Both the position numbers and the translations under genes were made by a program. The notes beneath the pieces were generated by a model, which was not told the DNA's origin, did not search any database, and saw only the letters and a program-made list of their open reading frames with translations. A DNA stretch of 64,000 bases from Pseudomonadota bacterium (GTDB taxonomy: Bacteria > Pseudomonadota > Gammaproteobacteria > Steroidobacterales > Steroidobacteraceae). Shown one piece after another: positions 551-47,144 of the stretch (positions are counted from its first letter, which is position 1; the number at the start of each line of letters is the position of its first letter). The stretch spans positions 30 to 64,029 of the forward strand of contig JAYTOI010000037.1 in NCBI GenBank assembly GCA_043747875.1, read 5' to 3'.

Positions 551-552
551 GC

Positions 553-4855: not shown

Positions 4856-4865
4856 GGGGCGCAGT

Positions 4866-4885: not shown

Positions 4886-4895
4886 GCGAAAGAGC

Positions 4896-5588: not shown

Positions 5589-5602
5589 GGAGGAGAACCG
5601 TC

Positions 5603-6037: not shown

Positions 6038-6120
6038 CACCTCGTTCGAGCGGACGCGTGAGGGATAAAGTGCCAAGCTCATACAGCTACGCGCGCGCCG
6101 CTCAGCTCAACCGTTAGGCG
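6032..6120 (+). repeat. attC site 11
   Basis: gcctaac ... gttaggc. Confidence 0.85.
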
Positions 6121-6122
6121 AC

Positions 6123-6434: not shown

Positions 6435-6452
6435 GATGTCTTCCTGCATGTC

Positions 6453-6541
6453 GCCTAACACATCGCTCGAGCGGACGCGTGAGGGATAAAGTGCCAAGCT
6501 CATACATCGGCGCGCGTGCCGCTCAGCTCAGCCGTTAGGCG
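6453..6541 (+). repeat. attC site 12
   Basis: gcctaac ... gttaggc. Confidence 0.85.
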
Positions 6542-6549
6542 GCATAGAA

Positions 6550-7011: not shown

Positions 7012-7094
7012 CTCCTCGCTGGAGCGCACGCGTGAATGTTAAAGTGCCAAGTCCGACCCGCCGCAGCCGCGCCGCTCAGCTCGACCAATAGGTG
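7006..7094 (+). repeat. attC site 13 (degenerate R')
   Basis: gcctaac ... aataggt; central part conserved (gtgaatgttaaagtgccaag). Confidence 0.7.
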
Positions 7095-7098
7095 TCAG

Positions 7099-7527
7099 AT
7101 GGATGTTCGCGAGATTCACACGTCAGAGATCGAAGAAGCCCGTCGCCTTTTGTTTGAGAACGGTTGGGGACATAGGGTGGCCGACCCGAAGCTGTTCAGC
7201 CTGCTCGTCTCAAAATCGCAGCGTGCAGTGGTCGCGGTTGAAGGTGGCAAGGTCATAGGCTTTGCTCGCGCCATTTGCGACGATCTCTCCAATGGGTACC
7301 TCTCGATGGTCGTAGTCGACCCCGCCCATCGTCGCCAGGGCGTGGGGCGGGCGCTAGTGCGTGCTGTCATGGGTGACAATCAGCTCATTACCTGGGTACT
7401 TCGCGCAGGACGTCCAGAGGAACTGCCATTCTTTGCGCGTTTGGGGTTTGTCCCGTCGAGCGTCGCAATGGAGCGCAATCGTGCCGCTAGCCCTGACACT
7501 CAACAAATCGCTGGAGCGAACGCGTGA
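7099..7527 (+). CDS. GNAT-family N-acetyltransferase (cassette)
   Basis: VVDPAHRRQGVGRALV acetyl-CoA-binding motif. The ATG lies just after attC 13. Confidence 0.7.
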   Translation: MDVREIHTSEIEEARRLLFENGWGHRVADPKLFSLLVSKSQRAVVAVEGGKVIGFARAICDDLSNGYLSMVVVDPAHRRQGVGRALVRAVMGDNQLITWVLRAGRPEELPFFARLGFVPSSVAMERNRAASPDTQQIAGANA

Positions 7528-7586
7528 AAGACAAAGTACCAAGATCAGACGCCGGCGCGCGCGGCGCTCAGCTCAACCGTTATGCG
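7498..7586 (+). repeat. attC site 14
   Basis: actcaac ... gttatgc. Confidence 0.75.
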
Positions 7587-7610
7587 GCCCTCTAGCGCTG
7601 CCGTCGTTCC

Positions 7611-8012
7611 ATGAGCGTCGTGGCGGCCGTCGTAGTTGCCGCATTCAGCCTCTCCCTCATCGCATTCACTGGCGTGGCCTTTGCAAAGCCGGCGACCGCC
7701 GAGCGATTTTTGAGCGCTTTCGCGAGTTCAGCGCGAACGCACTACCTAGAGCAGGCTTTGCGCTTGCTCGCCGGGGCGGCGCTCGTCGTACTTTCGCCAA
7801 CTATGTGGCAACCGAAGATGTTCTGGCTCTTTGGGTGGGGCATTGTCGTTAGCTCGACACTGTTGCTGTGCATTCCGTGGCAGTGGCACCATCGGTTGGG
7901 AGAGCGGGTACTACCGCTGCTCGTTCGACATCTCAAACTGTACGCTGTCGCGTCATTCACACTCGGCGCACTGCTGCTTTACGGAGCTTTTGTCGGTGGT
8001 CGAGCCGCATGA
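7611..8012 (+). CDS. Small membrane cassette protein (4 TM)
   Basis: Hydrophobic ORF; stop TGA within the attC 15 R''-like gcatgac. Confidence 0.6.
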   Translation: MSVVAAVVVAAFSLSLIAFTGVAFAKPATAERFLSAFASSARTHYLEQALRLLAGAALVVLSPTMWQPKMFWLFGWGIVVSSTLLLCIPWQWHHRLGERVLPLLVRHLKLYAVASFTLGALLLYGAFVGGRAA

Positions 8013-8095
8013 CAAATCGCTGGAGCGCACGCGTGGGGGATAAAGTGCCAAGCCCAAATCGCCGCAGCGGCGCCGCTCAGCTCGACTGTTAGGTC
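8007..8095 (+). repeat. attC site 15
   Basis: gcatgac ... gttaggt. Confidence 0.75.
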
Positions 8096-8111
8096 TCGGC
8101 CCGTTTGCATC

Positions 8112-8612
8112 GTGCACATCCGCGCCGAGAATCCCGTCGATGCTGCTGCCATCTCGGAGCTGGTTGAACGGGCGTTCGCTTCCGGCCCCCACAGCAATGG
8201 CTGTGAGCAGTCCATCGTTCTGGAACTGCGCAGGGCCGGTGCGCTGACGGTTTCGTTGGTGGCCGTAGAGGCCGGCCAACTACTGGGACACATTGCCTTC
8301 TCGCCGGTGTCAGTGACGGATCGCTCACAGCGTTGGTACGGTCTCGGCCCTGTTGCAGTCGAGCCGTCAGTGCAGCGAACTGGAATTGGCTCGGCCCTCG
8401 TCAAAGCGGGACTCGGCCAGCTTCAGGATCTCGGCGCCGCAGGCTGCGTAGTGTTGGGAGAACCTGAATACTACGGACGATTCGGGTTCGTTCAAATTGC
8501 CAGCCTGAGGTACCCGGGACCGCCGCCGGAGTGCTTCATGGCGCAGCCCTTTGGTGAACTGGTTCCAATTGGCGAGGTTTCGTACCATGCCGCATTCGCC
8601 GCCGAGGCCTAA
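8112..8612 (+). CDS. YhbS-like GNAT N-acetyltransferase (cassette)
   Basis: Collinear with my recollection of E. coli YhbS (HIAFSPV...W.GLGP.AV.P..Q..GIG..LV..GL..L...G....VVLG.P.YY.RFGF). Confidence 0.7.
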   Translation: MHIRAENPVDAAAISELVERAFASGPHSNGCEQSIVLELRRAGALTVSLVAVEAGQLLGHIAFSPVSVTDRSQRWYGLGPVAVEPSVQRTGIGSALVKAGLGQLQDLGAAGCVVLGEPEYYGRFGFVQIASLRYPGPPPECFMAQPFGELVPIGEVSYHAAFAAEA

Positions 8613-8695
8613 CAGCTCGCTGGAGCGCGCGCGGGAGGGGTAAAGTGTCAAGCGCATTCAGCAGCGCGCGCGCTGCTCAGCTCAACTGTTAAACG
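8607..8695 (+). repeat. attC site 16
   Basis: gcctaac ... gttaaac. Confidence 0.8.
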
Positions 8696-8697
8696 CT

Positions 8698-9237
8698 ATG
8701 GGAACGCCTCCTTATCGCGCTATCGTAATTGCTCTCACGGCGGGCTTTCTCTGCGTCCGCTGTGGAGCGGGGTATCCGCCGCCGGATGGATACATTGCGG
8801 CCTGCTATGGCGGCGACTTTCGCGCGAACCTCATGAAAGGCGAACCGCTCAAATTTCAGATGCGTGTTGCGGGAGACGAATCGAAGTGGCCTGAGCTCCG
8901 AACACGCCTTATCAAAGTAGCAGCCTCACATGATCTCGAGATTTTCGACACAAGCATGGCGCCGGCGGGCCTCCGATTGTTCGAGGTGAGCCTTTGCAGC
9001 AAAAAAGGACTCTGGGTGTACGCCGATAAGAGGATCTGGGAAAAAGGCCCGGCCGATCACGAGCCAAGCATCGTCCCAATCATGCTTTACCAGTACAACG
9101 ACACGTATGAATGGAGGCCTATCGCCTCGGCACTAACGGCGGCGTTTGAAGACTGGCCGGGGAAAGTCGAGGGCAAATATCTCGAACCGGCGGTGACTGC
9201 GCCTGACAAAGCGCTGGAACGCACGCGTGCAAGATAA
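8698..9237 (+). CDS. Hypothetical cassette protein with N-terminal hydrophobic/lipoprotein-like segment
   Basis: Single ORF; attC 17-encoded tail PDKALERTRAR. Confidence 0.55.
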   Translation: MGTPPYRAIVIALTAGFLCVRCGAGYPPPDGYIAACYGGDFRANLMKGEPLKFQMRVAGDESKWPELRTRLIKVAASHDLEIFDTSMAPAGLRLFEVSLCSKKGLWVYADKRIWEKGPADHEPSIVPIMLYQYNDTYEWRPIASALTAAFEDWPGKVEGKYLEPAVTAPDKALERTRAR

Positions 9238-9289
9238 AGTGCCAAGTTCATGCAGCCTGGCGCGCGCCGCTCAGCTCATCCGCTAGAAC
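9201..9289 (+). repeat. attC site 17 (diverged cores)
   Basis: gcctgac ... gctagaa; centre conserved (aagataaagtgccaag). Confidence 0.7.
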
Positions 9290-9580
9290 GTGCTCGTGAG
9301 TCGCGTTCTACCCAAAGATCGAAACGACCGCGAAGTAAGCGTCGGCTCACGTGTGCGCGTTCTTTCGCTTTCGAAATCTTTCATGGACTCCTTACCAGCG
9401 GATGAACGAGACGACGTTACATCGATGGTTGGTCAAGTTTTCGTAGTACACGAAGTGGATGAGCACGGATTGCCCTGGGTCGAGAAAGGCTGGCACTCTG
9501 AGTCAGAAGAGAGGTACAGAAGTCATTCCCTGGCTTTAAGCCCGGCCGAACTGGAGGTCGTGGATGATGTCGCGGTCTAA
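9290..9580 (+). CDS. Hypothetical small acidic cassette protein
   Basis: Single ORF in the shortest cassette. GTG start; stop TAA in attC 18 R''. Confidence 0.5.
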   Translation: MLVSRVLPKDRNDREVSVGSRVRVLSLSKSFMDSLPADERDDVTSMVGQVFVVHEVDEHGLPWVEKGWHSESEERYRSHSLALSPAELEVVDDVAV

Positions 9581-9663
9581 CTAATCTCTGGCGCGGACGC
9601 GCGAAAGATAATGTGCCAAGCCCAAACATCTGCGCGCGCGACGCTCAGCTCAACCATTGGACG
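9575..9663 (+). repeat. attC site 18 (diverged R')
   Basis: gtctaac ... attggac; centre gaaagataatgtgccaag. Confidence 0.7.
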
Positions 9664-9666
9664 GCA

Positions 9667-10161
9667 ATGCAACACCGCACGACTCTAAGGTACACGGAAC
9701 GGCTCGTCGGTCGGGCGGTGCACCTGTATTGGCGCAAGACGGTCGGATTCGGTCTTCCTGTGGCTGGCGCACTCATGATCGCCTTCCTCACCTGGCGGCT
9801 CATTGACGGCGATCGTTCGTGGGTCGTCGGGCTGATAGCCGCGGTGGTCCTGCTCGGGGTGCTCATGCCGGTGGCCGTGTACGTCGTCCACTATCGCAAC
9901 TCCATGGGAAAATTCAGGGAAATGGCTCAGCCTGTCGCGGAACTGGTGGCAGACCAGGACGCGATCACCATCACGTCGGATCGAGGCACCAGCTCGCTCA
10001 AATGGGAGCTTGTGAAGGAAGTGTGGCGCTTTGAAACACTGTGGCTGCTTCTCTTCTCTAAATCTCAATTCGTGACCTTGCCGCTCGAAGATCTTCCAGG
10101 CTCGATGCAGGCATTCATACTCGAGCGTATCAAGGCGTCTGGCGGCAAGATTGCCGTCTGA
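9667..10161 (+). CDS. YcxB-like membrane cassette protein (2 TM + C-terminal domain)
   Basis: Two adjacent TM helices followed by a ~90-aa soluble domain, an architecture resembling the YcxB family. Confidence 0.5.
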   Translation: MQHRTTLRYTERLVGRAVHLYWRKTVGFGLPVAGALMIAFLTWRLIDGDRSWVVGLIAAVVLLGVLMPVAVYVVHYRNSMGKFREMAQPVAELVADQDAITITSDRGTSSLKWELVKEVWRFETLWLLLFSKSQFVTLPLEDLPGSMQAFILERIKASGGKIAV

Positions 10162-10241
10162 TAAATATCTGGAGCGGACGCGTGGGGGATAAAGTGCCAA
10201 GCTCATACCGAAGCGCGCGGCGCTCAGGTCACCGTTGGTGG
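10156..10241 (+). repeat. attC site 19 (diverged R'')
   Basis: gtctgat ... gttggtg; centre ggggataaagtgccaag. Confidence 0.7.
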
Positions 10242-10252
10242 CAACTAGACTG

Positions 10253-10756
10253 ATGTCGGCCGTGCGCAAATTCTTTCCCACCCGGCGTCCCGGTCCGCGC
10301 TGGGGCGTCGCCATTGCGTGCGGGCTTGGCCTGGTCGGCGCTGGCGCCCTTTTCAGTGGCAGCTTGGAGCTCCCTTTGGTTCGAAACGCGCTCGTCCTCA
10401 TCTGCATTCCGTTGGTAACCGCGGGGCTTTTCGCTCTTTTCGGCAAGGCCGTTCCGGTCGAGGCTACTCCCGAGGGCGTTATCGCGAGTCGGGGTGGCGG
10501 ACTGCGTACACGTCTGGTTCACTGGCGAGAAATCAAACGGGTGGTCGCCACGACGCGAAATGGCACACCTATATTGATACTTGTTCACGACAGTCCCTTT
10601 CCAGAGGATTTGAGCATGCTCATGCATCTGGACGACGTTTCGGAGTTTCGCGCGTTCGTTACACGTCATGCTGGCGAGCAACATCCACTCTCGCTTTGGT
10701 TAGCCGACGCGGAGCAGGCGTCTAACAAAACTCTGGAGCGCGCGCGTGCAACATAA
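10253..10756 (+). CDS. Membrane cassette protein (2-3 TM + soluble C-terminal domain)
   Basis: Hydrophobic N-terminal half; attC 20-encoded tail SNKTLERARAT. Confidence 0.55.
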   Translation: MSAVRKFFPTRRPGPRWGVAIACGLGLVGAGALFSGSLELPLVRNALVLICIPLVTAGLFALFGKAVPVEATPEGVIASRGGGLRTRLVHWREIKRVVATTRNGTPILILVHDSPFPEDLSMLMHLDDVSEFRAFVTRHAGEQHPLSLWLADAEQASNKTLERARAT

Positions 10757-10808
10757 AGTGCCAAACCCATACTGCAGCGCGCGCGGCGCTCAGCTCGGCC
10801 GTTGAGCG
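10720..10808 (+). repeat. attC site 20
   Basis: gtctaac ... gttgagc. Confidence 0.75.
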
Positions 10809-10869
10809 TCGCTTGGGCGCGGCTCGCCTCATCGCGGTGCGGAAGATCCGGAATCCGGAAGTCGCAGCT

Positions 10870-11274
10870 ATGGCAAGTGAAGCAGCGACCTTTGTCGAAG
10901 CTCACTCATGGTGCCGAGCCGTGATCGAGACGAAGCTGGCTTGAGCGGTCGCGGGCATAGTGGGCGTCTTTCACGCGCGCATTGATTCAAGCGATCCAGG
11001 GATCGACCCGGTACTTTGGGTTGTGGTGGGCGATCTCCCATCTGCATGCCTGATGCTCGACGGCAACTCTTCATGGCGTGAAGTTTTGGCCGCGTACGTT
11101 CGAGAGATGAATTTGTGGGTGGGCGCAGTGCGCATGGGCGGCAGCCTTGCCGAAGTCATCCCGGTCGCCGCCGCTCCAACAAGGGAGAATGCCGAGGCGT
11201 TGGCGTCGCGCCTCGCGTACATTCAAACCGAAATGCTCGCGGCGGATGCCGAAGCGATTGACAGTGACACCTAA
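10870..11274 (+). pseudogene. Cassette gene interrupted by an in-frame TGA (DUF4826-like?)
   Basis: ATG 10870 and the 10960..11274 ORF share one frame, separated only by TGA at 10942-10944. The downstream part reads VLWVVVGDLPSACLMLDG. Confidence 0.45.
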
Positions 11275-11309
11275 AAAATCGCGGCGGCGCTCAGCTCAAC
11301 CGTCAGGCG
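11269..11309 (+). repeat. attC site 21 (internally deleted, ~41 nt)
   Basis: acctaaaaaatcgcggcggcgctcagctcaaccgtcaggc keeps both ends of the consensus but lacks the central ~48 nt. Confidence 0.55.
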
Positions 11310-11311
11310 GC

Positions 11312-11638
11312 ATGATGGGTACGCGCAAGTATCCGGAGCCGAATGACTCGCCACTGCGCCGCGATGTCTCGCGGGCGATTACCCTTAGAGGTAAACGAGC
11401 CGCGAGCCTGCGCCTGAGCCTCTCGAAGGCGGAGTGGTTTCAACCATCTGAGACGAACGACAAGCTTTGGGTGAAGTGGTTCTGTTGGCGCCTTTTGTCG
11501 AAGAACGGCCACAATGTCACGAGTCCAAAATACGGGATATTGCATGGCGGCCTTTCGAAGCGCGTACTGGAGCGCTCCCTGTGCGGATGGTTTCCGAACC
11601 ACCGGTGCGTCATTGACGATGAAATTTCACTTTCTTAG
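11312..11638 (+). CDS. Hypothetical cassette protein (last full cassette)
   Basis: The ATG lies 3 nt after attC 21 and the ORF ends just before attC 22. Third positions are only moderately GC-rich. Confidence 0.4.
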   Translation: MMGTRKYPEPNDSPLRRDVSRAITLRGKRAASLRLSLSKAEWFQPSETNDKLWVKWFCWRLLSKNGHNVTSPKYGILHGGLSKRVLERSLCGWFPNHRCVIDDEISLS

Positions 11639-11644
11639 CTTGCC

Positions 11645-11733
11645 GCTTGACGAATCGCTGTAGCGCACACGTGGGAGATAAAGCGCCAGGTTCAAACCGC
11701 CGCCGCCGCGGCGCACAGCCCAACCGTCAGGAG
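11645..11733 (+). repeat. attC site 22 (most diverged, last full-length copy)
   Basis: gcttgacgaatcgctgtagcgcacacgtgggagataaagcgccagg...cccaaccgtcagga is collinear with the consensus. Confidence 0.6.
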
Positions 11734-11860
11734 GTTCGCACATGCCAGCGCAATTGCTGTTGTTCGGGAAAATGCCGAACTTGATCCACTCGCGGGGGCC
11801 GATCGCGAAGAAGTGTTTCAACACGACAGTGGCCGCTTCCGCGGAAGCCGCGCAGAGTCA

Positions 11861-11901: not shown

Positions 11902-12294
11902 ATGACGTCTCAAATCCCTTCCGGTACCGAGCTGGCCCGGCCGTTTCTCCCCACCAAGGACTTCGAGCTGTCGCGATCCTTCTATGAGGCGCTGGGCTTC
12001 GAGAAGGTGATGGATGGAGAAGTGGCAATCTTTCGCGTGGGCCCCGGCGGCTTCATTCTTCAGCGCTACTGTCAGCAGCAGTGGGCGGAGAACACCATGA
12101 TGCAGCTCATGGTCGACGACCTCGACGCATGGTGGAAGCGCATATCCGCGCTGGATCTGCCGGCACGATTTGGTGTCGCGGCGCCCAAGCCGCCCGCGCT
12201 GCAGCCGTGGGGATTGCGCATCGCCTATCTAGTGGACCCGGCCGGAGTGCTCTGGCACGTGGCGCAGCGCCGACCAGGCGCGCCCCAGGACTGA
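11902..12294 (+). CDS. VOC/glyoxalase-bleomycin resistance family protein
   Basis: PFLPTKDFELSRSFYEALGFEKV... fits the VOC fold pattern. Confidence 0.7.
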   Translation: MTSQIPSGTELARPFLPTKDFELSRSFYEALGFEKVMDGEVAIFRVGPGGFILQRYCQQQWAENTMMQLMVDDLDAWWKRISALDLPARFGVAAPKPPALQPWGLRIAYLVDPAGVLWHVAQRRPGAPQD

Positions 12295-34196: not shown

Positions 34197-36884
34197 ATGG
34201 ATGCGCCCAGTCCCACTCGAACCACCTGCCCGTACTGCGGCGTGGGTTGCGGTGTGCTGGCCACGGCGAGCGAGGACGGCGTCGAGGTGCGCGGCGATCC
34301 TGCGCATCCGGCGAACCGCGGCAAGCTGTGCGTGAAGGGCAGCGCGCTCGGCGAGACCGTCGGGCTCGAAGACCGCCTGTTGTTTCCCCAGATCCGCGGG
34401 CGGCGCGCGGAATGGGATACGGCCATCGCCACGGTCGCCGCAGGGTTCGAGCGCTGCATCGAGCAACATGGACCCGAGTCCGTGGCGTTCTACGTGTCGG
34501 GTCAGTTCCTGACCGAGGACTATTACGTCGCCAACAAGCTCGTGAAGGGTTACCTCGGCACGGCGAACATCGACACCAATTCGCGCCTGTGCATGGCCTC
34601 GGCAGTGGCCGGCTACAAACGCGCGTTCGGCGAGGACGTGGTGCCGGTCAGCTACGACGACCTCGACGTCGCAGACCTCATCGTGCTCGTGGGCTCGAAC
34701 ACCGCGTGGTGTCACCCCATCATCCTGCAGCGCATCTTGGCGGCGCGCGAGCAGCGGCCGCAGCTCAAGATCGTCGCGCTCGATCCGCGGCGAACCGCCA
34801 CCACCGAGCTCGCAGACCTGCACCTGGCGCTGGCGCCAGGCACCGACGTACATCTGTTCAACGGCTTGCTGGTGTGGCTGGCCGGGCTTGGCGCGGTAGA
34901 TAGCGGTTTCGTCGCGGCGCACACCAACGGATACGACGAAGCGCTGGCTGCCGCGCGCGTGGGCGGCGACCTGCCATCCACCGCGCGCGCCTGCGGGCTC
35001 GACGAGGCGCTGCTGCGGCAGTTCTACGAATGGTTCGCGGAGCACCCGGCCGTGATCACGGCGTTCTCGCAGGGCGTGAACCAGAGCTCGGCCGGCACGG
35101 ACAAGGTGAACGCGATCATCAATTGCCACCTGGCGACCGGGCGCATCGGCAAACCCGGCGCCGGTCCGTTCTCGGTGACCGGCCAGCCCAATGCGATGGG
35201 CGGGCGCGAAGTCGGCGGCTTCGCGAACACGCTGGCGGCGCACATCGACCTGAACGACGCAGCGGGCCGCGCGGCCGTGCGGCGCTTTTGGGACAGCCCC
35301 GCCATCGCCGACAAACAAGGTCCGAAAGCGGTCGAGATGTTCGACCGCATCCACGACGGCCGCATCAAGGCGGTGTGGATCATGGCAACGAATCCGGTGG
35401 TCAGCCTGCCCGATGCCGACAAAGTGCGAGCCGCGCTCGAGCGCTGCGAGTTCGTGGTGGTGTCGGACGTCATGGCCAACACCGATACTGCGGCGTTCGC
35501 ACACGTGTTGCTGCCCGCGCTGGCGTGGGGCGAGAAGGACGGCACCGTCACGAACTCCGAGCGCACCATCTCGCGCCAGCGACCGTTCCTGCCCGCCCCC
35601 GGCGAGACGCGCGCCGACTGGCGCATCGTCTGCGAGGTCGCGCGCGCAATGGGATTTTCCGGCTTCGACTTCGCCGGTGTCCACGAGGTGTTTCGCGAGC
35701 ACGTGCGCCTCACGGCGCACGAGAACGACGGCCGCCGCGCGCTGCACATCGGCGCATGGGCCGACATCAGCCGGGATGAGTATGAGGATTGGCAACCCGC
35801 CGCGTGGCCCATGAAGACCTCGCGCGAGAGCGCGCGCGGGCCGATGTTCGGCGACGGCCGCTATCAACACGCGGACGGACGCGCGCGCTTCGTGGCGCTG
35901 GCGCCGCGGCTGCCCGAGAACGCGACCTCGAGCGAAATGCCGCTGGTGCTCAACACCGGCCGCGTTCGCGATCACTGGCACACCATGACGCGCACCGGCA
36001 AGTCCGCGCGGCTGTCGGGACACACGGCGGAGCCATACGTCGACGTCAACAATGCCGATGCGCTGCGGTACGCGGTGCGCGCCGGCGAGTTGGCTACGCT
36101 GCGCTCGAGCTGGGGCTCGATGGTGGTGCGGGTGCACACCGGCGGCGAGGTGCCGGCCGGCATGGTGTTCGCGCCTATCCACTGGAATCGGGCGTTCGCC
36201 TCCGATGCGCGCGTCGGCGCGCTGACGAACCCGGTCGTCGATCCGATCTCGGGCGAGCCCGAGCTCAAGCACACGCCGGTGTCCATCGAGGCATATGCCG
36301 CCGACTGGTATGGAGTCATGCTGGCGCGCGCGCCGCCACCGCCGCCCGCGCTCGACTGGTGGACGAAGGTGCAGGGCGCGGAGTTCGTGCGCTATGAGCT
36401 CGCCGGGCGTGCGCCCGCCGACTGGACGCGGTTCGCGCGCACATTGTTAGGCGTGGGCGATGCCGAGGTGGATTGGATGGAATACGCGGATGCCGGCCGG
36501 CGCGTGTACCGCGCCGCCTACCTGGTCGACGACCGGCTGGAAGGCTGTGTGTATTTCGACGCGCGCCCGGCGCTGCCCGAGCGGGCGTGGCTGTCGCGGC
36601 TGTTCACGGTGGGCAAATTCAACGATGCGATGCGCGACGCGCTGCTGGCTGGCCGTGCCATCGAAGGCGCGGATCAGGGCGTGCCGGTGTGCTCATGCTT
36701 CGGCGTGGGCCGCAATCCGATCGTCGCGTGCGCGCGGCAGCTCGGCGCCGCCGCGACCGCGGTCGAGATCGGAATGCGCTTGAAATGCGGCACGAACTGC
36801 GGGTCCTGCGTGCCGGAGATCCAGCGGATCATCGCGGACGAGGCACGGGCACATGCGGGAGGGCTGGCGTCGACGAGTGGTTAG
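34197..36884 (+). CDS. nasA: Assimilatory nitrate reductase catalytic subunit (molybdopterin, C-terminal BFD-like 2Fe-2S)
   Basis: N-terminal CPYCGVGCG 4Fe-4S motif, MopB core, C-terminal CSCFGVG...CGTNCGSC. Confidence 0.9.
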   Translation: MDAPSPTRTTCPYCGVGCGVLATASEDGVEVRGDPAHPANRGKLCVKGSALGETVGLEDRLLFPQIRGRRAEWDTAIATVAAGFERCIEQHGPESVAFYVSGQFLTEDYYVANKLVKGYLGTANIDTNSRLCMASAVAGYKRAFGEDVVPVSYDDLDVADLIVLVGSNTAWCHPIILQRILAAREQRPQLKIVALDPRRTATTELADLHLALAPGTDVHLFNGLLVWLAGLGAVDSGFVAAHTNGYDEALAAARVGGDLPSTARACGLDEALLRQFYEWFAEHPAVITAFSQGVNQSSAGTDKVNAIINCHLATGRIGKPGAGPFSVTGQPNAMGGREVGGFANTLAAHIDLNDAAGRAAVRRFWDSPAIADKQGPKAVEMFDRIHDGRIKAVWIMATNPVVSLPDADKVRAALERCEFVVVSDVMANTDTAAFAHVLLPALAWGEKDGTVTNSERTISRQRPFLPAPGETRADWRIVCEVARAMGFSGFDFAGVHEVFREHVRLTAHENDGRRALHIGAWADISRDEYEDWQPAAWPMKTSRESARGPMFGDGRYQHADGRARFVALAPRLPENATSSEMPLVLNTGRVRDHWHTMTRTGKSARLSGHTAEPYVDVNNADALRYAVRAGELATLRSSWGSMVVRVHTGGEVPAGMVFAPIHWNRAFASDARVGALTNPVVDPISGEPELKHTPVSIEAYAADWYGVMLARAPPPPPALDWWTKVQGAEFVRYELAGRAPADWTRFARTLLGVGDAEVDWMEYADAGRRVYRAAYLVDDRLEGCVYFDARPALPERAWLSRLFTVGKFNDAMRDALLAGRAIEGADQGVPVCSCFGVGRNPIVACARQLGAAATAVEIGMRLKCGTNCGSCVPEIQRIIADEARAHAGGLASTSG

Positions 36885-37132
36885 TCGAGCCGATCGAGTG
36901 GGCGGCGTGTGCCGAGGCCGTGACGATCGAGCAACGCGTGGCAGGGGGCGGCGCGCCTTGCCGCCCTGCGCACCGCGTCGCGCACCACCCGCTGTACCGA
37001 TTGTCGTGGAGATGGTGTCGCCGCCACGCTCCCGTTCGCGGAGTAGTTCGACGGGAGTGCAGGCTTGTCATTCATGCAGTTTGTGCTGAAATGCGACGTC
37101 GTTGGGACGTCAAATTGAGAATTAGACGCGAT

Positions 37133-37426
37133 ATGTCAGCACGGATCGCCGCCCGTTTTGCTGCTTGCCTGGTGTTCTCCCTGGGTGGCGCCGGCTGTGC
37201 ACGAGAGCCGCTCGCTCCAACCTTGACCCTCGGCACCGTCGGCCAGCTCAGCTCCAAAAACACCGCAAGCCTTGCGTACCAGGACGACGCTGGCAGCGTT
37301 TTCGTCACTGTGGTCGACAAACATGGCGATGCGCGCGTACACAGGCTGGATTTTACAGGCGCAACCAAAGGGCAGGCCCTCGAGTTGCTGATGCGCAAAC
37401 AAGCCGAATTGGAGCAGCGCCGGTAG
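37133..37426 (+). CDS. Small lipoprotein carried on a satellite integron cassette
   Basis: Lipobox FSLGGAGC. The ORF ends 4 nt before an intact attC. Confidence 0.6.
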   Translation: MSARIAARFAACLVFSLGGAGCAREPLAPTLTLGTVGQLSSKNTASLAYQDDAGSVFVTVVDKHGDARVHRLDFTGATKGQALELLMRKQAELEQRR

Positions 37427-37430
37427 CACG

Positions 37431-37518
37431 GCCTAACAAACCACTGGGGCGAAGCGTGGGCGATCATGTGCCAAGCCCAAGCCACCGCAGCCGCGGCGCT
37501 GAGCTCAACCGTCAGACG
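37431..37518 (+). repeat. Satellite attC site ~25 kb from the array
   Basis: gcctaacaaaccactggggcgaagcgtgggcgatcatgtgccaagcccaagcc...ggcgctgagctcaaccgtcagac is full length and collinear with the array consensus. Confidence 0.8.
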
Positions 37519-37672
37519 GCAATGGACGGCAACGCTCTTATCGTCACCGGCATCGCCGTAGCGGAGCTCAAACGCCTGCGCGCGGTGCTCGGCTCAACCG
37601 TTTGGGTATCGGTCGAGCCGCACCTGGTTCGACACTGCCTTGAACTTCGCTGCCGCCCTCACCCCGTGGTGC

Positions 37673-38044
37673 ATGACGACCGCAACGGGTGCAAGGGTTG
37701 GCATTGCCGTGGCGATCGTCGCGGTTCTGGCGATGCTGTCCTCGATGGCGCTGTTTGGATGCCTCGAGGTCAAAGCCGATTCGACCGAAGCCATCGAGGT
37801 CTTTCGCTCGCTCATTTTTCCCGATACCCCGAGCGGCGAAGCTTCCTTCCGCCCACCATCGCTCTTTTCCGACTCGCACGTGCTGCTCGAATGGGCGGCG
37901 GCCAATGGCGCCACCTCATTGGCGTGCCTCACGATCGCAATACGCAGAGGCGCGACTGTTCCGGATTCGCGCAGCGGCGCCGTCACCGTGGTCACCTCTT
38001 TGTTGTCATTGGCGTCGTTGGTCGTGTTGGGCCCAATCTGCTAG
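37673..38044 (+). CDS. Small membrane protein (second satellite cassette ORF)
   Basis: Strong GC third-position bias in this frame; TM helices at both ends; start could be TTG 37640. Confidence 0.5.
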   Translation: MTTATGARVGIAVAIVAVLAMLSSMALFGCLEVKADSTEAIEVFRSLIFPDTPSGEASFRPPSLFSDSHVLLEWAAANGATSLACLTIAIRRGATVPDSRSGAVTVVTSLLSLASLVVLGPIC

Positions 38045-38149
38045 GTGTTTGACGCGGCGTTTGGGTGAGGGTCGCCGGATGTGGCGTGACGACCCGCAGA
38101 CGTACCTAGCCGGTTCACATGGGCGCGCGACGCTCGGTTCATTGCCGGC
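38038..38149 (+). repeat. Decayed attC-like element after the second satellite cassette
   Basis: Ordered matches to the consensus: gtgaggg, cagacgt, gcgcgcgacgctcggttcattgcc (versus gcgcgcgccgctcagctcaaccgtt). Confidence 0.4.
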
Positions 38150-38316
38150 AACCTGTTCTACTGCTGGCGCATCGCGGTGCTGATCACCGATATTCGGGAG
38201 TGTCCAGGAGGGTCGGCGCGAGTACGGTGCCGGGACTGCCGGACGCGCGCCCTGGCAGCCTGACGACTCGCCGAGCAGGAGCGCGGAGCTCTGGTATTGT
38301 TCGTCGCATCGCAAGG

Positions 38317-39204
38317 ATGGGGGTCCCCGTGATCAGACGAACGATGTATGCGGCGCTCGCCGCGTGGGTGTTCTGCGCGCAGGTTGTCTTCGGTGCCCAG
38401 CCGGTGGGCGCCGATCCGCCGCTCGTGAAGCTCTGGCCGGCCGGGGTGCCGGGTGTCATGGCCAACGGCGGCGCGGAGTCGGTGCGGATCGGCGAGCAGG
38501 GCGACCATGTGGTCACCAACGTGCACGATCCGTCGCTGACCCACTATCTACCCGGCGCAAAGGGCGGCGGTGCGGCGGTCATCGTAATTCCAGGCGGCGG
38601 GCATCGCGAGCTGTGGACCGATCACGAGGGCCACGACGTGGCGAGATTTCTCGCCCAGCGCGGCATCGTCGCGTTCGTGCTCAAGTACCGCCTCGCGCGT
38701 GCGGCGAACTCCACGTACACCATCGAGCGCGATGGGCTGAACGACATCAAGCGCGCCATCCGCACGGTGCGGGCGCGAGCCGCGGAGTGGAACGTGGATC
38801 CGAAGAAAGTGGGTGTCATGGGTTTCTCCGCGGGCGGACAGCTCGCGCTGCTCAGCGCGACGCAGTTCGACGCCGGCGACGCGGCCGCGACGGACCCCGT
38901 GGACCGCCAGGGCGCGCGCCCGGATTTCGCCGCGCTGGTGTATCCCGGCACATGGCCGGATCCCAAGATCACCGCCGAAACGCCGCCGATGTTCCTGCTG
39001 TGCGGCAGCGACGACCGGCCGCAGGTGCTGGCCGGCATGACGCAGATCTATCACGCGCTGCGCGAGGCGAAGGTGCCCGCGGAGCTGCACTTCTACGACG
39101 GCGTGCAGCATGGCTTCGGCATCCGCGCGACCAATACCGGGCCCGTCACGCGCTGGCCGACCCAGTTGGTCGAATGGATGCAGGCGCGGAAGATCGTGCC
39201 GTGA
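38317..39204 (+). CDS. Secreted alpha/beta-hydrolase (esterase/lipase family)
   Basis: Signal peptide, HGGG-like IPGGGH, GFSAGG nucleophile elbow, C-terminal DD...H. Confidence 0.75.
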   Translation: MGVPVIRRTMYAALAAWVFCAQVVFGAQPVGADPPLVKLWPAGVPGVMANGGAESVRIGEQGDHVVTNVHDPSLTHYLPGAKGGGAAVIVIPGGGHRELWTDHEGHDVARFLAQRGIVAFVLKYRLARAANSTYTIERDGLNDIKRAIRTVRARAAEWNVDPKKVGVMGFSAGGQLALLSATQFDAGDAAATDPVDRQGARPDFAALVYPGTWPDPKITAETPPMFLLCGSDDRPQVLAGMTQIYHALREAKVPAELHFYDGVQHGFGIRATNTGPVTRWPTQLVEWMQARKIVP

Positions 39205-41862: not shown

Positions 41863-42264
41863 GGCGTGCTGTGCCGTCTACTTTTCGCACTACCTACCTG
41901 TCGGAGTACGGAAACTTCGGCTTTAGCTCGCGTCACCCCCGACGAGCAGTTAGGGCGGACAGCGCAGCAGCTCGCGGACTTCGTCGACTATCTGAAGATG
42001 GCCTGATGACTTTCGCCTGACGTCGGGCGTGATATGTCCTCCCAGGCTCAATTCCCGAGGAGGTATTCCCGATACTTCGCCGCACGCATCGATTCGTCGA
42101 GCGCAATGATACGGACACTGCTGCACGGCGGCGGTTCGCGGGTGTGACGCGCGTCTCGCCAAGGCGCGATCGAGTTCGCCGAGCCGCTGACAGTTAGCCG
42201 ATTTCTTGAAGTTTCCGCCAACGCTGCCGCTACGCTCAGATCGATATGATGTCAGGCGTATGCG

Positions 42265-43491
42265 GTGAGCACGAAATTCGAGGCACATGGTCCATCGACC
42301 GACGGCACGGAACGACGTGAGCTCGTGGAAGCACTTGCGCACGAACGCAACGTGCTGCGAACGATGATCGACCTGATTCCGGCGTTCATCTACGCGAAAG
42401 ACGTGAGGAGTCGCTTCACCGCCTGTAATGAGTTGGTCGCGAATCGCATGGGCACCACGCCCGCGCAACTCGTCGGCAAGACGGACTTTGATTTTCATTC
42501 GCGCGAACAGGCCGAACGATTTTTTGCCGATGAGCAGGCCCTGCTCGTCTCCGGCATCGCGCTCATCGATCACGAAGAGGTCTCTTTCGACGCGACCCGC
42601 GGCGAAAACCGCGTCATCCTCACATCTAAAGTGCCGCTGCGCGACGCTGCCGGCAACTTTACCGGCTTGGTAGGCACCGGCGTCGATATCACCGAGCGAA
42701 AGGCTGCCGAGGAACGAATGGCGGCGGGCGCACATCTCGAGTCCATCGGCCGGCTCGCCGCGGGTGTCGCGCATGAAATCAACACGCCGATTCAGTATTT
42801 GAAGGACAGCGTGTCGTTCTTGCGCGAAGGGCTGCAGGAGTTACTCGAGGCATTCGACGGGCTGCGCGCTTCGATGCCCGACCCTCCGGCGCCGGATGAA
42901 AACGTGGAGGAACTGCGTTGCGAAATGCCACCGGCGCTGGAGCGTATGGCCGAAGGACTGAACCGGATTGCCGAGATCGTGCGCTTCATGAAAGAGTTTT
43001 CATATGCCGATAAACGTGAGATGGGGCCGGTCGACCTCAACCGCGCGGTCAACAGCACGCTGGTTGTTGCCCGCAGCGAATACAAAATGGTCGCCGATGT
43101 GGAAACTGACTTCGGCGAGCTTCCGCCGGTGATTTGCCACGGTGGGCAGGTGAACCAAGTGATACTCAACATCGTGGTGAACGCGGCGCACGCGATCGAA
43201 GACGTGGTCCGTGGTACGGCTCAGCGCGGCATGATCAAGGTCTGCACTCGCGTCGAAGAAGGGCATGCTGTCATCGAGATCAGTGATACCGGTAAGGGAA
43301 TCCCCGAGGAGGTGCGTCCTCGAATATTCGATCCGTTCTTTACGACGAAAGCCGTGGGACGCGGCTCGGGGCAGGGGCTATCGATCGTCCACGACGTCAT
43401 CGTTAAAGGGCACAAAGGCCAGATCGAGTTCGACACCGATTTGGGTCGCGGAACGACGTTCCGTGTGCGTCTGCCCCTAACAGTCCGGTAA
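42265..43491 (+). CDS. Cytoplasmic PAS-domain sensor histidine kinase (no adjacent response regulator)
   Basis: PAS (IPAFIYAKD...FTACN...DITERK), H-box AAGVAHEINTP, N/G1/G2 boxes of HATPase_c. Confidence 0.85.
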   Translation: MSTKFEAHGPSTDGTERRELVEALAHERNVLRTMIDLIPAFIYAKDVRSRFTACNELVANRMGTTPAQLVGKTDFDFHSREQAERFFADEQALLVSGIALIDHEEVSFDATRGENRVILTSKVPLRDAAGNFTGLVGTGVDITERKAAEERMAAGAHLESIGRLAAGVAHEINTPIQYLKDSVSFLREGLQELLEAFDGLRASMPDPPAPDENVEELRCEMPPALERMAEGLNRIAEIVRFMKEFSYADKREMGPVDLNRAVNSTLVVARSEYKMVADVETDFGELPPVICHGGQVNQVILNIVVNAAHAIEDVVRGTAQRGMIKVCTRVEEGHAVIEISDTGKGIPEEVRPRIFDPFFTTKAVGRGSGQGLSIVHDVIVKGHKGQIEFDTDLGRGTTFRVRLPLTVR

Positions 43492-43711
43492 GCCTATAGT
43501 TAGTCGCCAAACCACTGTGGACTGTCCGGTATGCGACATGAAACACATTTTCTCTGATCCGACAGCGCTAACTTTGCCCGTCATGGAACATATGTTTCAT
43601 CGGTTGCCGAGACGGAAACGGCATTCCAAGGTGTGAGTGGTTTAAATCGAATCTTGCGCGCACGAGACTTTATCAATGTCGCGTGCCGTGACGGAATTAA
43701 TGGGAGGCATC

Positions 43712-46288
43712 ATGAATTCGAAGATCCAATCTGCTGGGCCATTTGCGCATACGGCGATGGGCTTCTTTGCGGCGCTGGTCACGGTTCTGGCCGCTCCAGT
43801 CCATGCTCAGGAATCGCCGTCGAATGCGGAACCGGAAGAGTTGGAAGAAGTGGTGGTGTCCGGGCAACGTCAGGCCGAGCTGCGTGCCGTCGAAGCCAAG
43901 CGCAAATCCGACAACGTCGTCGAGTCGCTGCAGGCCAACGATGTCGGAAAATTGCCCGATCAGAACGTCGCCGAAGCGGCTGGGCGCCTCGCGGGCATCT
44001 CGGTGGCGACCGACAAGGGCGAAGGCCGCTTTCTCATCATACGCGGCCTCGAGCCGAATCTGGCTAACGTCACGCTCAACAATCAAACCGCGACAGCTCC
44101 GGAACCGGAGTCGCGTCAGATCAAGCTCGACGACATCCCTTCCTCGCTCATCGGGTCCGTTTCGGTCATCAAGTCTCTGACACCGGATCTCGACGCGAAT
44201 GCCATTGCCGGGCAGGTGGACATCAGTACGTTGAATGCGTTCGACAAGGACGGCACGTTCGCCTCGGCGCGCCTGATCGCGGGTCAGTATCAGCTCGGCG
44301 ACGGTAAGCCATATGAAGGAGATGCGACCTGGGGCCGTCTACTTGGGCCCGGCGGGAAGTTTGGAATCGTACTCTCGGGCAATTATTCCACTCGTCCCAT
44401 CAATTCCGAAAATCTGCTGACGGGTGACCAGCGGTGGCAGACCGTCGGTATCCGCCAGCTTCCCGTTCAGCTCGACGTGCGGCGCTACGATCCGATTCAA
44501 AGATCGCGCTCCGGCGGTGTGGCGAACTTCGACTGGCGCCCGAGCGACAACACCGAGATGTTCTTCCGCGCAATGTATGCCCAGTACAAGGATGCCGAGA
44601 CGCGCAATCGATTCCGCGTTTCGTTCCCGACGAATCCGGCCTCGTACACCAACCAGACGGACACCACCGGCAGCATCACCGGTACTCGCGGCGAACGGTA
44701 TGTTCGCAAGCGCACCGAAACCGACGAAACCTTCACTTTCGCGCTCGGCGGCAAGTTCAGGATAGGTGACAACAGGCTGCAAGTGCAGGCGACGCATTCG
44801 CGCTCCGACAAGAACGACCCCATCCGCGATGAGTGGAGGTTCAGGACCGGCGGCTCCACCGTGGCGGCCACCTACGACCTTTCGGATGAGGTGTTCCTGC
44901 TGACGCCGGGGGCAGCGGGGTTCGTCGCGACTAACTACAACGCAGGAATTACCTACAACGACCGCACAGGAGATGCCATCGAGGACCTCAGCCAGATCCG
45001 TCTCGATTTCGAGATGCCGTTGTCCTTCGGCAACGACAGCTACTGGAAATTGGGCGCGAAGTACCTTGATCGGGACAAGTCCGACGATCGCGAAGGACGC
45101 TTTTTCGTGTACAACGCCATGGGCTTCACCCTGGCGAACGCGACCGGGGTGACGATCCCCTCCACGTATGACGGGCGCTACGCATTCGGCCCGGCCGTGG
45201 ATTTCGCCGCCGCGCGGGCTTTTTTCGACGCGAATCCGGCGGCTTTCACGCCGGACAATGCGGCATCGCTAAGCGATTCGCTCGGCGCGGACTACGAGGC
45301 GAACGAGACGATCCTTGCTGCCTACATCATGACCGGCTTGCGTTTCAGCAAGGCCACATTGACCGCGGGCGTGCGCGCCGAGCGGGCCGAAGGAGATTAC
45401 GCGGCGAAGACCATCACGCCCACGTCGACTCTTGCCACTCCGTTCAACTCATTTGGTGGCCGTGAATACACCACCGTCTTTCCAGGCGTAAACTTGAAGT
45501 GGAACTTGCGCGACAATCTGATGCTGCGTTCCGCGGTGACGACCGCCATCGGCCGGCCGGATTACAACAGGCTTGCGCCGAACGTAATCGTCGATACGGG
45601 CGGCAACACGGTGACCCTCGGAAATCCAGATCTCGCGCCCCTTCGGGCCACTAACTACGATCTTGCGCTCGAGTACTACACTTCGAATGGCGGTCTCATC
45701 TCGCTCGGCCTGTTCCGAAAAGACATTACGAACCCCATTTTTGTGAGCGGGCGAGTGGAAAGCGGGATCTACGGAGGAGTGCCGCTCGTAAATGCCGTGA
45801 TTACCCAGCCCCGCAACGGTGAAGAATCCGAGGTGTCGGGCTTCGAGCTCAGCGTCCAAATGCCCTTCGATTTCCTGCCGTCGCCGTGGAATGGATTCGG
45901 CATCAATACGAACCTGACGCTGTTGTCCGGCGATACGCGGATCCCGGGCCGGGCGGATGAGCTGCCGCTCTTCCTGCAATCGGACCGTATCGCCAACGCA
46001 CAGCTGTACTTTGAGAAACGCGGTTTTCTGGCGCGTGTCGCGTACTCGTATCGCTCCAAGTACCTGGACGTCATCGGCACTGGGACCGTTTCGGACGTCT
46101 ACACTGACGATCACGGACAAGTGGATGCTCGCGTGGGATATGACTTCAATGAGCATTTTTCAGTATTCGTCGAAGGACAGAACGTCGGAAATGTGCATGA
46201 CCGCCGTTTTATCGGCAGCGAAAACTTCTTCGTCGAAGACGAGGTGTTTGGCCGGCTGATCAGGGCGGGCGTGCAAGCCAACTACTAG
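43712..46288 (+). CDS. TonB-dependent outer-membrane receptor
   Basis: GGGAGG Shine-Dalgarno, signal peptide, plug domain (LQANDVGKLPDQNVAEA..RL.GI), terminal aromatic residue (..QANY). Confidence 0.88.
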   Translation: MNSKIQSAGPFAHTAMGFFAALVTVLAAPVHAQESPSNAEPEELEEVVVSGQRQAELRAVEAKRKSDNVVESLQANDVGKLPDQNVAEAAGRLAGISVATDKGEGRFLIIRGLEPNLANVTLNNQTATAPEPESRQIKLDDIPSSLIGSVSVIKSLTPDLDANAIAGQVDISTLNAFDKDGTFASARLIAGQYQLGDGKPYEGDATWGRLLGPGGKFGIVLSGNYSTRPINSENLLTGDQRWQTVGIRQLPVQLDVRRYDPIQRSRSGGVANFDWRPSDNTEMFFRAMYAQYKDAETRNRFRVSFPTNPASYTNQTDTTGSITGTRGERYVRKRTETDETFTFALGGKFRIGDNRLQVQATHSRSDKNDPIRDEWRFRTGGSTVAATYDLSDEVFLLTPGAAGFVATNYNAGITYNDRTGDAIEDLSQIRLDFEMPLSFGNDSYWKLGAKYLDRDKSDDREGRFFVYNAMGFTLANATGVTIPSTYDGRYAFGPAVDFAAARAFFDANPAAFTPDNAASLSDSLGADYEANETILAAYIMTGLRFSKATLTAGVRAERAEGDYAAKTITPTSTLATPFNSFGGREYTTVFPGVNLKWNLRDNLMLRSAVTTAIGRPDYNRLAPNVIVDTGGNTVTLGNPDLAPLRATNYDLALEYYTSNGGLISLGLFRKDITNPIFVSGRVESGIYGGVPLVNAVITQPRNGEESEVSGFELSVQMPFDFLPSPWNGFGINTNLTLLSGDTRIPGRADELPLFLQSDRIANAQLYFEKRGFLARVAYSYRSKYLDVIGTGTVSDVYTDDHGQVDARVGYDFNEHFSVFVEGQNVGNVHDRRFIGSENFFVEDEVFGRLIRAGVQANY

Positions 46289-46301
46289 AGAGTCTCGTAC
46301 A

Positions 46302-46336
46302 GGCGCCCGCATCGATATTGCGGGCGCCTCGTTTTT
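46302..46336 (+). terminator. Rho-independent terminator of the TonB-dependent receptor gene
   Basis: 10-bp perfect stem ggcgcccgca/tgcgggcgcc, 7-nt loop, followed by tcgttttt. Confidence 0.75.
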
Positions 46337-46613
46337 GAAGCCCAGGCTATGGACCGCGCGAAGTTTGAGTTTTGAGTTTGTCGGCAAAGTCAGGTAGGGG
46401 CAGATGAGCCACGACGGCAACAAGCCGCGCTCGGCTGACGCACAGCGTAGCCACACAGCCCGCGCCCATCTATCGCAGCCAGTTGAATCACGGCGCGTCA
46501 ATGTTCGGTTTTCGAGCACCGAGGGCGTGGCATCCGATCGACATGCGACAAGCGCGATCGGGTGCTCGCAGTCCGGCTTGCGTGCTCGACATTATTTTTA
46601 GGAAATTTATTCC

Positions 46614-46979
46614 ATGACTACATTCGCCGATGTTTCGCTCGCGCTACGATAAATCCTGCTCCCGTACGCAGGCGGGCTCACGTGCCTCAAGGACTCGCCC
46701 GCCGAACTCTATAGCAACGGAAAGTATCCCGATCCTAAAGGCAAGCCGGTCTTCTTCGTTGCCGTCCAAGTGAAGAAGAACCACGTGAGCTTCCACCTGA
46801 TGCCCGTGTACGTGAATCCGGCGTTGTTGGAAGCCATATCGCCGGAGTTGCGCAAACGCATGCAAGGCAAGTCATGCTTCAACTTCAAGACGATTGATAT
46901 GCAGCTTTTTGAGGAACTCGCCGCACTCACCTATGTGGCTTATACCAAGCCTTCAAGGACAGAGGAGATGCATGAGTGA
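46614..46979 (+). pseudogene. DUF1801-family gene with an in-frame TAA at codon 13
   Basis: ATG 46614 (AGGAA upstream) and the 46653..46979 reading frame are the same frame, interrupted only by TAA at 46650-46652. The downstream part reads VQVKKNHVSFHLMPVY...GKSCFNFKT. Confidence 0.5.
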
Positions 46980-47144
46980 GCGAGGGAGAGCCGGAAGACG
47001 AGGGATTTGGCCGCCTTGCCTGGAAGGCGCGCCAGCGTCGCCGGCCGGTTGTTAGGGGGTCAGCCGCGAAATCAGGGTTGTGGATCGAGGTTCGCGTCGA
47101 CATCGCAAAGTCGGTGCGCGAAAAACCGACTGAATTGTTTCCCT

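Follow-up and report, generated by a model that had tools for sequence, protein, structure and literature searches.

A probable decayed integron platform between nasA and an esterase gene in a soil gammaproteobacterial lineage

Sedentary chromosomal integrons occupy lineage-conserved loci, for example next to ilvD in Xanthomonas, where their integrases are degraded. Clusters of attC sites without an integrase (CALINs) have several possible origins. Cury et al. 2016 (NAR 44:4539; PMC4889954) list loss of intI as origin (iii), and a recognisable intI pseudogene was present within 10 kb in 15 of 279 CALINs in that study. Insertion of cassettes by IntI at genomic GWT sites (attG) has been shown experimentally (bioRxiv 10.1101/2022.09.11.507474).

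The locus described here lies in a 64-kb stretch of DNA (the window), which also contains a 22-site attC array. The region from 36881 to 38160, between nasA and an esterase gene, is best read as an integron platform that has decayed, or a CALIN that arose when intI was lost (probability roughly 0.87). The platform would consist, in order, of a minus-strand intI pseudogene, its cognate attI, a complete cassette (S1, made up of ORF1 and an attC), a stub with half an attC, and an ORF2 cassette with an eroded attC. As such, the locus is an ordinary, previously described kind of relic. Like a CALIN produced by intI loss, it has attC cassettes with no functional integrase nearby and an intI pseudogene within 10 kb; unlike one, it has a still recognisable attI on the nasA side and shares its 64-kb window with an array of the same attC family. 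The ilvD integrons of Xanthomonas are similar in being chromosomal, in lying beside a housekeeping gene, in the high homogeneity of their attC family, in the loss of the integrase through deletion and frameshift, and in carrying cassettes about whose function little is known. They differ in that the neighbour here is nasA and most sampled relatives have no integron at the site. An attG insertion, or SALIN, would also appear as one or more isolated cassettes with no working integrase adjoining; however, S1 is bordered by an attI homologue and an intI pseudogene rather than by a plain genomic GWT site.

Both flanks of the insert are conserved. On the left is nasA (34197-36884), an 895-aa ORF encoding the catalytic subunit of assimilatory nitrate reductase, with the Pfam domains Molybdop_Fe4S4, Molybdopterin, Molydop_binding and Fer2_BFD. 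On the right is an alpha/beta-hydrolase (esterase) gene (38344-39204; Pfam BD-FAE, Abhydrolase_3 and DLH). These genes and the features of the insert described below are on the plus strand, with the exception of the integrase pseudogene. The best NasA match in GTDB species genomes has 80% identity (L001) and is encoded on a contig that ends inside nasA; the others are at most 60% identical. Strain-level comparison with these genomes was therefore uninformative, and a metagenome scan of nasA loci was used instead. Orthologues of NasA at about 45 metagenome loci have 66-80% identity. In 20 relatives, the distance from the nasA stop to the esterase start is between -4 and 78 nt; in the window it is 1459 nt. 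A GH97 gene directly follows nasA in eight relatives, at a spacing of 48-197 nt, and a cupin-like gene follows it in the closest relative (L088, 80% identity). The additional DNA is thus directly visible against related genomes, and its GC content is 0.62 compared with 0.68-0.71 in the flanks. The evidence supports a lineage-specific insertion of the cassettes, placed between nasA and the conserved gene that comes after it. Promoter and terminator scans of 36700-38450 gave nothing exceeding shuffled expectation. No promoter-like site was found in this interval with the sigma-70 consensus, which may not fit the Pc of this integron class.

Most sampled relatives lack an integron next to nasA, and one metagenome locus, L127, has an intact one. 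There, nasA (stop at 928) is followed by an intact IntI gene on the minus strand (981-2012; TIGR02249, 440 bits), then by attI and by a cassette with an attC of the same family as the array (79.5 bits). L127 is the sole relative in the nasA group with this intact arrangement, and its NasA belongs to a different subclade from that of the window. An intI gene near nasA is also found in a distant lineage (L030). An ancestral integron at the nasA-adjacent site would require several losses, because only L127 is intact, it belongs to the other subclade, and L088 has a cupin-like gene. Otherwise, the platform was acquired independently or through recombination.

The integron-integrase pseudogene (36881-37044, minus strand) is convergent with nasA and consists of frameshifted and deleted fragments, which read PRTGAWRRHHLHD, QSVQRVVRDAV… and …LDRHGLGTRRPLDRLD, the last ending at a stop codon. 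All that survives corresponds approximately to residues 254-290 and 326-343 of the L127 IntI, and a single frameshift falls near 37000-37003. Deletion has removed the first ~250 residues and the catalytic His/Tyr segment; the C-terminal LDRxGxGxRxPLD is still present. With the L127 IntI as a tblastn query, PRTGAWRRHHLHD is identical at 11 of 13 positions (E 1e-7 locally), and QSVQRVVRDAVRRAARRAAP is found in the adjacent minus-strand frame (E 4e-6). The fragments total about 55 residues and are individually short. The conceptual peptide matches positions 222-270 of TIGR02249 'integron integrase' (E 2.3e-6), and its 27 bits are far below the family cutoff of 265, so it does not qualify as an intact intI. 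Its top PDB match is VchIntIA (2A3V; E 0.022), and the extreme C-terminus is included in the alignment. No intact IntI is encoded in the 64-kb window, and near the nasA-side cassettes there are just the pseudogene fragments at 36881-37044.

The end of the pseudogene also bears on the heptamer GTTAGTC (36880-36886), which the earlier note correctly located at the end of nasA and proposed as a secondary insertion site for IntI. The nasA stop codon TAG (36882-36884) lies inside it, and the TAA stop of the pseudogene (36881-36883) overlaps that TAG. GTTAGTC occurs here because the two convergent stops overlap.

Upstream of the first cassette there is a homologue of an attI site (37063-37128), which ends in an R-box-like ATTAGAC (37121-37127) where the cassette starts. 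The spacer between intI and the first cassette of L127, used as a single nhmmer query, matches this segment with 26 bits (E 1.2e-5), and it is the only significant match across about 1.6 Mb of loci. Attention was also given to attI-like motifs at two other loci, L085 and L105; against the L127 attI alone these are weak (E 1.1) or give no match with nhmmer. Scores from a four-sequence attI profile are circular and are not counted as evidence. When S1 is aligned with its homologues in L082 and L085, its 5' end falls at [A]TTAGAC, with the boundary at 37121/37122, 5 nt before the ATG. In those two loci, the ATG comes 5-8 nt after the end of the previous attC or of an attI-like motif. Position 1 of the attI R box is A instead of G; the same variant is present at true cassette junctions, including two array sites and L082. 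To judge from its sequence, the putative attI adjoins the intI remnant, and the first cassette is joined to it at its R box.

Cassette S1 is 390 nt long (37122-37511) and runs from TTAGAC to the G of R'. It contains ORF1 (37133-37426), which encodes 97 aa with a signal-like N-terminal segment and a Cys, a possible lipoprotein. A Pfam search with ORF1 returned no match, and the protein belongs to a cassette-borne family: ten homologues in metagenomes share approximately 47-55% identity with it, and almost all have its length of 97 aa. In L082, L083, L084 and L085, an attC of the same family (92-97 bits) follows the homologue by 4 nt, and in L082 and L083 the homologue sits within typical cassette arrays. 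The spacing in the window is the same, with the ORF1 stop TAG at 37424-37426 and R'' (GCCTAAC) starting at 37431. The reading frame of ORF1 is intact and may be expressed today, possibly through nasA read-through.

The full-length attC reported in the earlier note 4 nt after this ORF is genuine. In a search with a covariance model built from 20 array attC sites only, 37430-37519 scores 56.3 bits (E 1.2e-13 window-wide) and is the best match outside the array; nhmmer gives E 5e-14. The site was originally placed at 37431-37518. Its start is correct, and R' (GTCAGAC, 37511-37517) closes 1 nt earlier, at 37517. It is a degraded member of the array family. Canonical pairing is kept at 14 of 19 model stem pairs, the canonical fold has a predicted energy of +2.2 kcal/mol compared with -15.7 to +1.0 for array members, and the predicted minimum free energy fold differs from the attC hairpin. 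The folding models suggest that this attC is probably weak or inactive. S1 is supported as a real integron cassette whose attC belongs to the same family as the array.

The DNA downstream of S1 is more fragmentary. A second cassette survives as a remnant (37512-37606) in which the short stub of an ORF, with its ATG at 37522, is fused to the 3' half of an attC (37565-37606), whose R' GTTTGGG lies at 37600-37606. The half site scores 17.6 bits with the covariance model (E 0.02 window-wide, 5e-4 locally), and nhmmer aligns it to model positions 46-88 (E 4e-4 to 8e-4). It carries the 10-mer GCTCAACCGT, which is confined to the array and to positions 37503 and 37592. This half attC, the pseudo-intI and the attI homologue had all been overlooked in the earlier note. 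ORF2 (37673-38044) encodes a predicted small membrane protein of 123 aa. It is an orphan: a search of 5.8 billion proteins found only ORF2 itself, and Pfam gave no match. Its frame has the highest third-position GC (0.74), and a gene is called there in the public assembly. Its context makes ORF2 the probable coding region of a third cassette.

A second attC had been proposed after ORF2. The ordered strings gtgaggg, cagacgt and gcgcgcgacgctcggttca cited for it are present, but an attC at 38047-38160 lacks statistical support. The covariance model gives no plus-strand match there at E<10, including in a 1.6-kb local search. Two nhmmer profiles, one of them enlarged with attC sites from other loci, reach 3.9-4.5 bits at 38100-38142 (E 2.5-3.8 window-wide). 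The segment begins with an R''-like GTTTGAC (38047-38053) and includes a 40-nt stretch that is 73% identical to an array attC. Lying directly behind an ORF, the segment could at most be the relic of an eroded attC. Pairing GTCAGAC (37511) with GTTTGAC (38047) as the R' and R'' of a single cassette was considered and dropped, since the half attC with its own R' (37600) intervenes. The neighbourhood thus has one full attC, one 3' half and one doubtful relic. The description 'CALIN-like' is fair, as no intact integrase adjoins the cassettes. IntegronFinder's rule for a CALIN is two or more attC sites; with one full and one half attC that pass a model, the locus may score as a single site (SALIN). 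A low-GC block at 42-47 kb of the window was also checked for integron remnants; it has no attC and encodes a PAS histidine kinase and a TonB-dependent receptor.

For a decayed platform, the cassettes would have been acquired through ordinary attI x attC recombination, carried out by an IntI encoded at the locus itself. Deletions and a frameshift would later have destroyed intI, and the cassettes, now immobile, would then have begun to decay. This order, local insertion followed by intI decay, is suggested rather than proved by sequence data. At present, recombination in cis at this locus has most likely ceased.

The earlier note proposed instead that the IntI of the other integron may have acted in trans and inserted one or two cassettes at the attG-like GTTAGTC on the nasA stop. 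The heptamer exists, IntI is capable of such insertions, the same attC family is found 25 kb away, and insertion of this kind is among the possible CALIN origins of Cury et al. (PMC4889954). The cassette boundary, however, is 240 nt downstream of GTTAGTC, and the DNA between consists of intI fragments and the attI homologue, with about 160 nt of fragments before attI. The heptamer is already accounted for by overlapping stops, and the window has no intact intI. Trans insertion at nasA is therefore very improbable. Because of the boundary, the attI homology, the intI fragments and the stop overlap, this locus provides no evidence that the other integron is or was active in trans. Chance resemblance, with no integron-derived sequence present, would suit the supposed second attC, which is at chance level window-wide. 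It is hardly conceivable for the locus as a whole, given the E value of 1e-13 for the S1 attC, homologous ORF-plus-attC cassettes in independent metagenomes, and E values of 1e-5 for attI and 1e-7 for intI fragments.

It is also unlikely that the nasA-side cassettes and the 22-site array began as one integron at the nasA-side attI, split by a later rearrangement that left the large array as a displaced CALIN and the nasA locus as the original head. The two share attC family and orientation, rearrangement is a recognised CALIN origin (PMC4889954), and an intact intI is missing from the window; the left end of the large array is outside the window, and the public contig seen for that end, one of three that carry the gene, starts only about 70 nt before the window. 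Against such a split, stem pairing in the large array falls from 20/20 at its left (proximal) end to 15-17/20 at its right, and S1, next to the nasA-side attI, is the worst at 14/19. Read as one array, the sites would show a gradient that is not monotonic; a different platform, recently active and located left of the window, is the better fit. No IS or rearrangement scar is seen at either junction. A further possibility is that integrase-less platforms with attI and cassettes are maintained in this soil gammaproteobacterial lineage and kept in service by an IntI that acts in trans from a separate integron of that chromosome, which would make a multi-platform integron. Three integrase-less platforms were seen: the nasA locus, L085 beside a histidine kinase gene, and L105 after GH97. 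At the nasA locus, attI is about as conserved as coding sequence, and intI is largely deleted. Such a multi-platform system is nevertheless quite unlikely.

A platform that decayed in place gives a clear example, documented by sequence, of integrase decay on the spot leaving a CALIN or an isolated cassette; Cury et al. were able to connect no more than about 5% of CALINs with that route (PMC4889954). The locus also illustrates how weakly a GTTRRRY-like heptamer close to an attC argues for secondary-site insertion; the first things to check are where the cassette begins and whether remnants of attI or fragments of an intI pseudogene are present. As for the organism itself, it would have two integron platforms with one attC family, approximately 25 kb apart, of which the nasA-side one is dead. 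The nasA-adjacent position of this dead platform carries a live integron in a related lineage.

A metagenome scan with the C-terminus of NasA returned about 45 related loci at 64-80% identity. In 20 of these the esterase gene, which starts at 38344 in the window, begins -4 to 78 nt past the nasA stop, and in 8 others GH97 lies within 48-197 nt of nasA. The nasA-to-esterase interval in the window is 1459 nt. Compared with most of the related genomes, this interval is therefore an insertion; the earlier note had called it inserted. Gene order in the 20 loci is nasA, esterase and then GH97; in the 8, GH97 follows nasA directly. Three loci (L114, L115 and L123) carry a 1.1-1.4 kb unidentified insert between nasA and GH97, and in L105 a LacI-family gene takes the place of the esterase gene between them.

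The insertion contains a real cassette, as the earlier note proposed. A covariance model (R''/R' stem, L''/L' stem and two extrahelical positions) was trained on 20 attCs of the large array only and run over all 64 kb with filters off. Its top match outside the array is 37430-37519 (56.3 bits, window-wide E 1.2e-13; nhmmer E 5e-14), with R' GTCAGAC at 37511-37517; this attC begins 4 nt past the stop of ORF1 (37133-37426), as the earlier note stated. ORF1 is intact (97 aa) and has ten metagenome homologues, nearly all of 97 aa, at ~47-55% identity. In L082, L083, L084 and L085 the homologue is likewise followed 4 nt on by an attC (92-97 bits on the array-only model); ORF1 and its attC are thus a genuine, recurrent cassette, here called S1. 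The L082 and L083 cassettes belong to typical arrays, made up of small genes that share one strand (HicB-like, acetyltransferases, glyoxalase). In L085 (2219-3475) the ORF1-family cassette is the first behind an attI-like motif; a divergently oriented histidine kinase gene is ~400 nt away, and the contig has no integrase. Alignment of the homologous cassettes puts the 5' boundary at [A]TTAGAC (37121-37127), 5 nt ahead of the ATG, so S1 is 37122-37511 (390 nt). The counterparts of this boundary are ATTAGGC in L082, where it closes the attC before it, and GTTAGGC in L085. TTAGAC is complementary to S1's own R'' (GCCTAAC) save one position, as cassette structure predicts. A scan of the nasA-ORF1 interval gave no promoter-like site and no convincing + strand terminator; expression of ORF1 by read-through from nasA is therefore possible.

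The rest of the insertion is poorly preserved. The second-ranked covariance-model match outside the array, 37566-37608 (17.6 bits, window-wide E 0.02), corresponds to an attC's 3' half, has GTTTGGG as its R' and was not included in the earlier note; nhmmer finds it at E 4e-4, covering model positions 46-88. The 10-mer GCTCAACCGT has 11 copies in the window: nine in the array, one at 37503 and one at 37592. The cassette after S1 is reduced to a stub with half an attC. ORF2 (37673-38044, 123 aa) is an orphan; third-position GC is highest in its reading frame. A second attC had been described behind it; the strings quoted for it are present, but its identity as an attC lacks model support. The segment (38047-38160) gave no + strand covariance-model match with E<10, also when the search was confined to 1.6 kb, and 3.9-4.5 bits by nhmmer (window-wide E 2.5-3.8). 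It may be an eroded attC relic, since its place is precisely the one expected of an attC; the last cassette retains a relic attC at most. The S1 attC itself has 14 of 19 stem pairs canonical. Its canonical fold comes to +2.2 kcal/mol (array sites: -15.7 to +1.0), and the structure of lowest energy differs from the attC hairpin.

A live counterpart is found in the related contig L127. There nasA (stop at 928) is followed by an opposite-strand gene of 343 aa (981-2012); past a spacer come the first cassette and an attC that belongs to the family seen in the window (79.5 bits, cut at the contig end). The product of the 343-aa gene matches TIGR02249 'integron integrase' at 440 bits, and L127 928-2592 is a complete integron head right after nasA, with intact IntI, attI and first cassette. 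With the spacer between intI and the first cassette as sole nhmmer query, ~1.6 Mb of retrieved loci gave one match only, 37063-37128 of the window (26 bits, E 1.2e-5; ~75% identity across ~66 nt); the end of the alignment reads AAGAGTTAGGC for L127 and GAGAATTAGAC for the window. From its position in L127 the aligned spacer is taken to be the attI site. In L085 and L105 a short core resembling it, GTCTAAnTAAGAGTTAGRC, stands ahead of the first cassette; the similarity is weak when L127 alone is the query, and no trace of intI was found in either locus. In L105 (9300-11020) the DNA directly 3' of GH97 has an attI-like motif (GGTTTAAACAAGAGTTAGAC), a DUF4262 cassette whose attC is of this family (105 bits) and further small ORFs.

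With the L127 IntI as query, a local search finds two minus-strand matches next to nasA: PRTGAWRRHHLHD at 37041-37003 (11/13 identical, E 1e-7) and, in an adjacent frame, QSVQRVVRDAVRRAARRAAP… (E 4e-6). That frame continues to …ALLDRHGLGTRRPLDRLD and a stop, corresponding to the IntI C-terminus, …HVLDRGGIGARSPLDWV and a stop. The joined peptide matches TIGR02249 at positions 222-270 (E 2.3e-6), and its top PDB match is VchIntIA 2A3V, residues 228-275 plus the extreme C-terminus. Absent are the N-terminal ~250 residues and the stretch bearing the catalytic His and Tyr. Short as they are, these fragments point to an intI pseudogene. On the minus strand it ends in TAA (36881-36883), which shares bases with the TAG stop of nasA (36882-36884), and this overlap accounts for GTTAGTC at 36880-36886, which includes the nasA stop codon as the earlier note observed. 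That note suggested that the resident integrase may have inserted cassettes in trans at a secondary site here. The cassette boundary, which does not coincide with the nasA stop, and the intI and attI homology contradict this.

The array (461-11734; G+C 0.55-0.60, against ~0.65-0.70 elsewhere in the window, a metagenome contig, ENA ERZ27315222) has ~22 highly similar attC sites of 88-92 nt, each reading R'' to R' on the + strand; its integrase is therefore expected left of position 1, beyond the window. A tblastn search of the whole 64 kb, with an integron integrase as query, detected no intact intI. Canonical pairs number 19-20/20 in the left, attI-proximal half and 15-18/20 in the right, distal part, and covariance-model scores drop alongside, from ~110 to ~79 bits. 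One site (10155-10242) is degraded, with only 61 bits and a shifted 3' end, and a remnant at 11268-11310 (GGCGCTCAGCTCAACCGTCAGGCGG) keeps just the 3' part (15 bits). A glyoxalase-like ORF (11902-12294, 130 aa) 3' of the last array attC, with no recognisable attC after it, may represent a terminal cassette whose attC has been lost; beyond it are a hypothetical gene and a DeaD helicase gene on the minus strand. One public contig for this side, L087, begins ~70 nt before the window start, within the array (L087 1-70), probably at a repeat-induced assembly break; two further contigs have the same cassette gene from near the window start. Neither attC nor intI signal was seen at 42000-47000, a block of lower GC (0.55-0.61) that encodes a PAS histidine kinase and a TonB-dependent receptor and is unrelated to the integron.

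The feature beside nasA is real, and is a CALIN or a degenerate integron with an intI pseudogene. Its sequence is best read as a decayed integron platform, comprising pseudo-intI, attI, one complete cassette and cassette debris. In the simplest history, a local integrase would have captured cassettes by ordinary attI x attC recombination; the integrase would then have been lost and the platform eroded. This is CALIN origin (iii) of Cury et al. 2016 (PMC4889954), who could recognise an intI pseudogene in the vicinity of just 15 of 279 CALINs. A less likely alternative is that the 22-site array, whose left end falls outside the window, was once joined to this platform. Stem integrity in the array drops from left (20/20) to right (15-17/20), yet S1, which adjoins attI, is worst; two separate platforms fit better.

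The decayed platform matches the live L127 integron in position and orientation. L127 and the window belong to different NasA subclades, and the closest relative of the window (L088, 80% identity) has a cupin-like gene 3' of nasA; the nasA-adjacent integron may thus be ancestral, with several losses, or may have been acquired repeatedly. In a distant gammaproteobacterial MAG (NORP60; L030 8637-10290, NasA 54% identical) a bona fide intI (TIGR02249, 407 bits) lies convergent, ~700 nt downstream of nasA, with one 170-aa gene between them. The integron head in L127 links this attC family to a specific integrase lineage.
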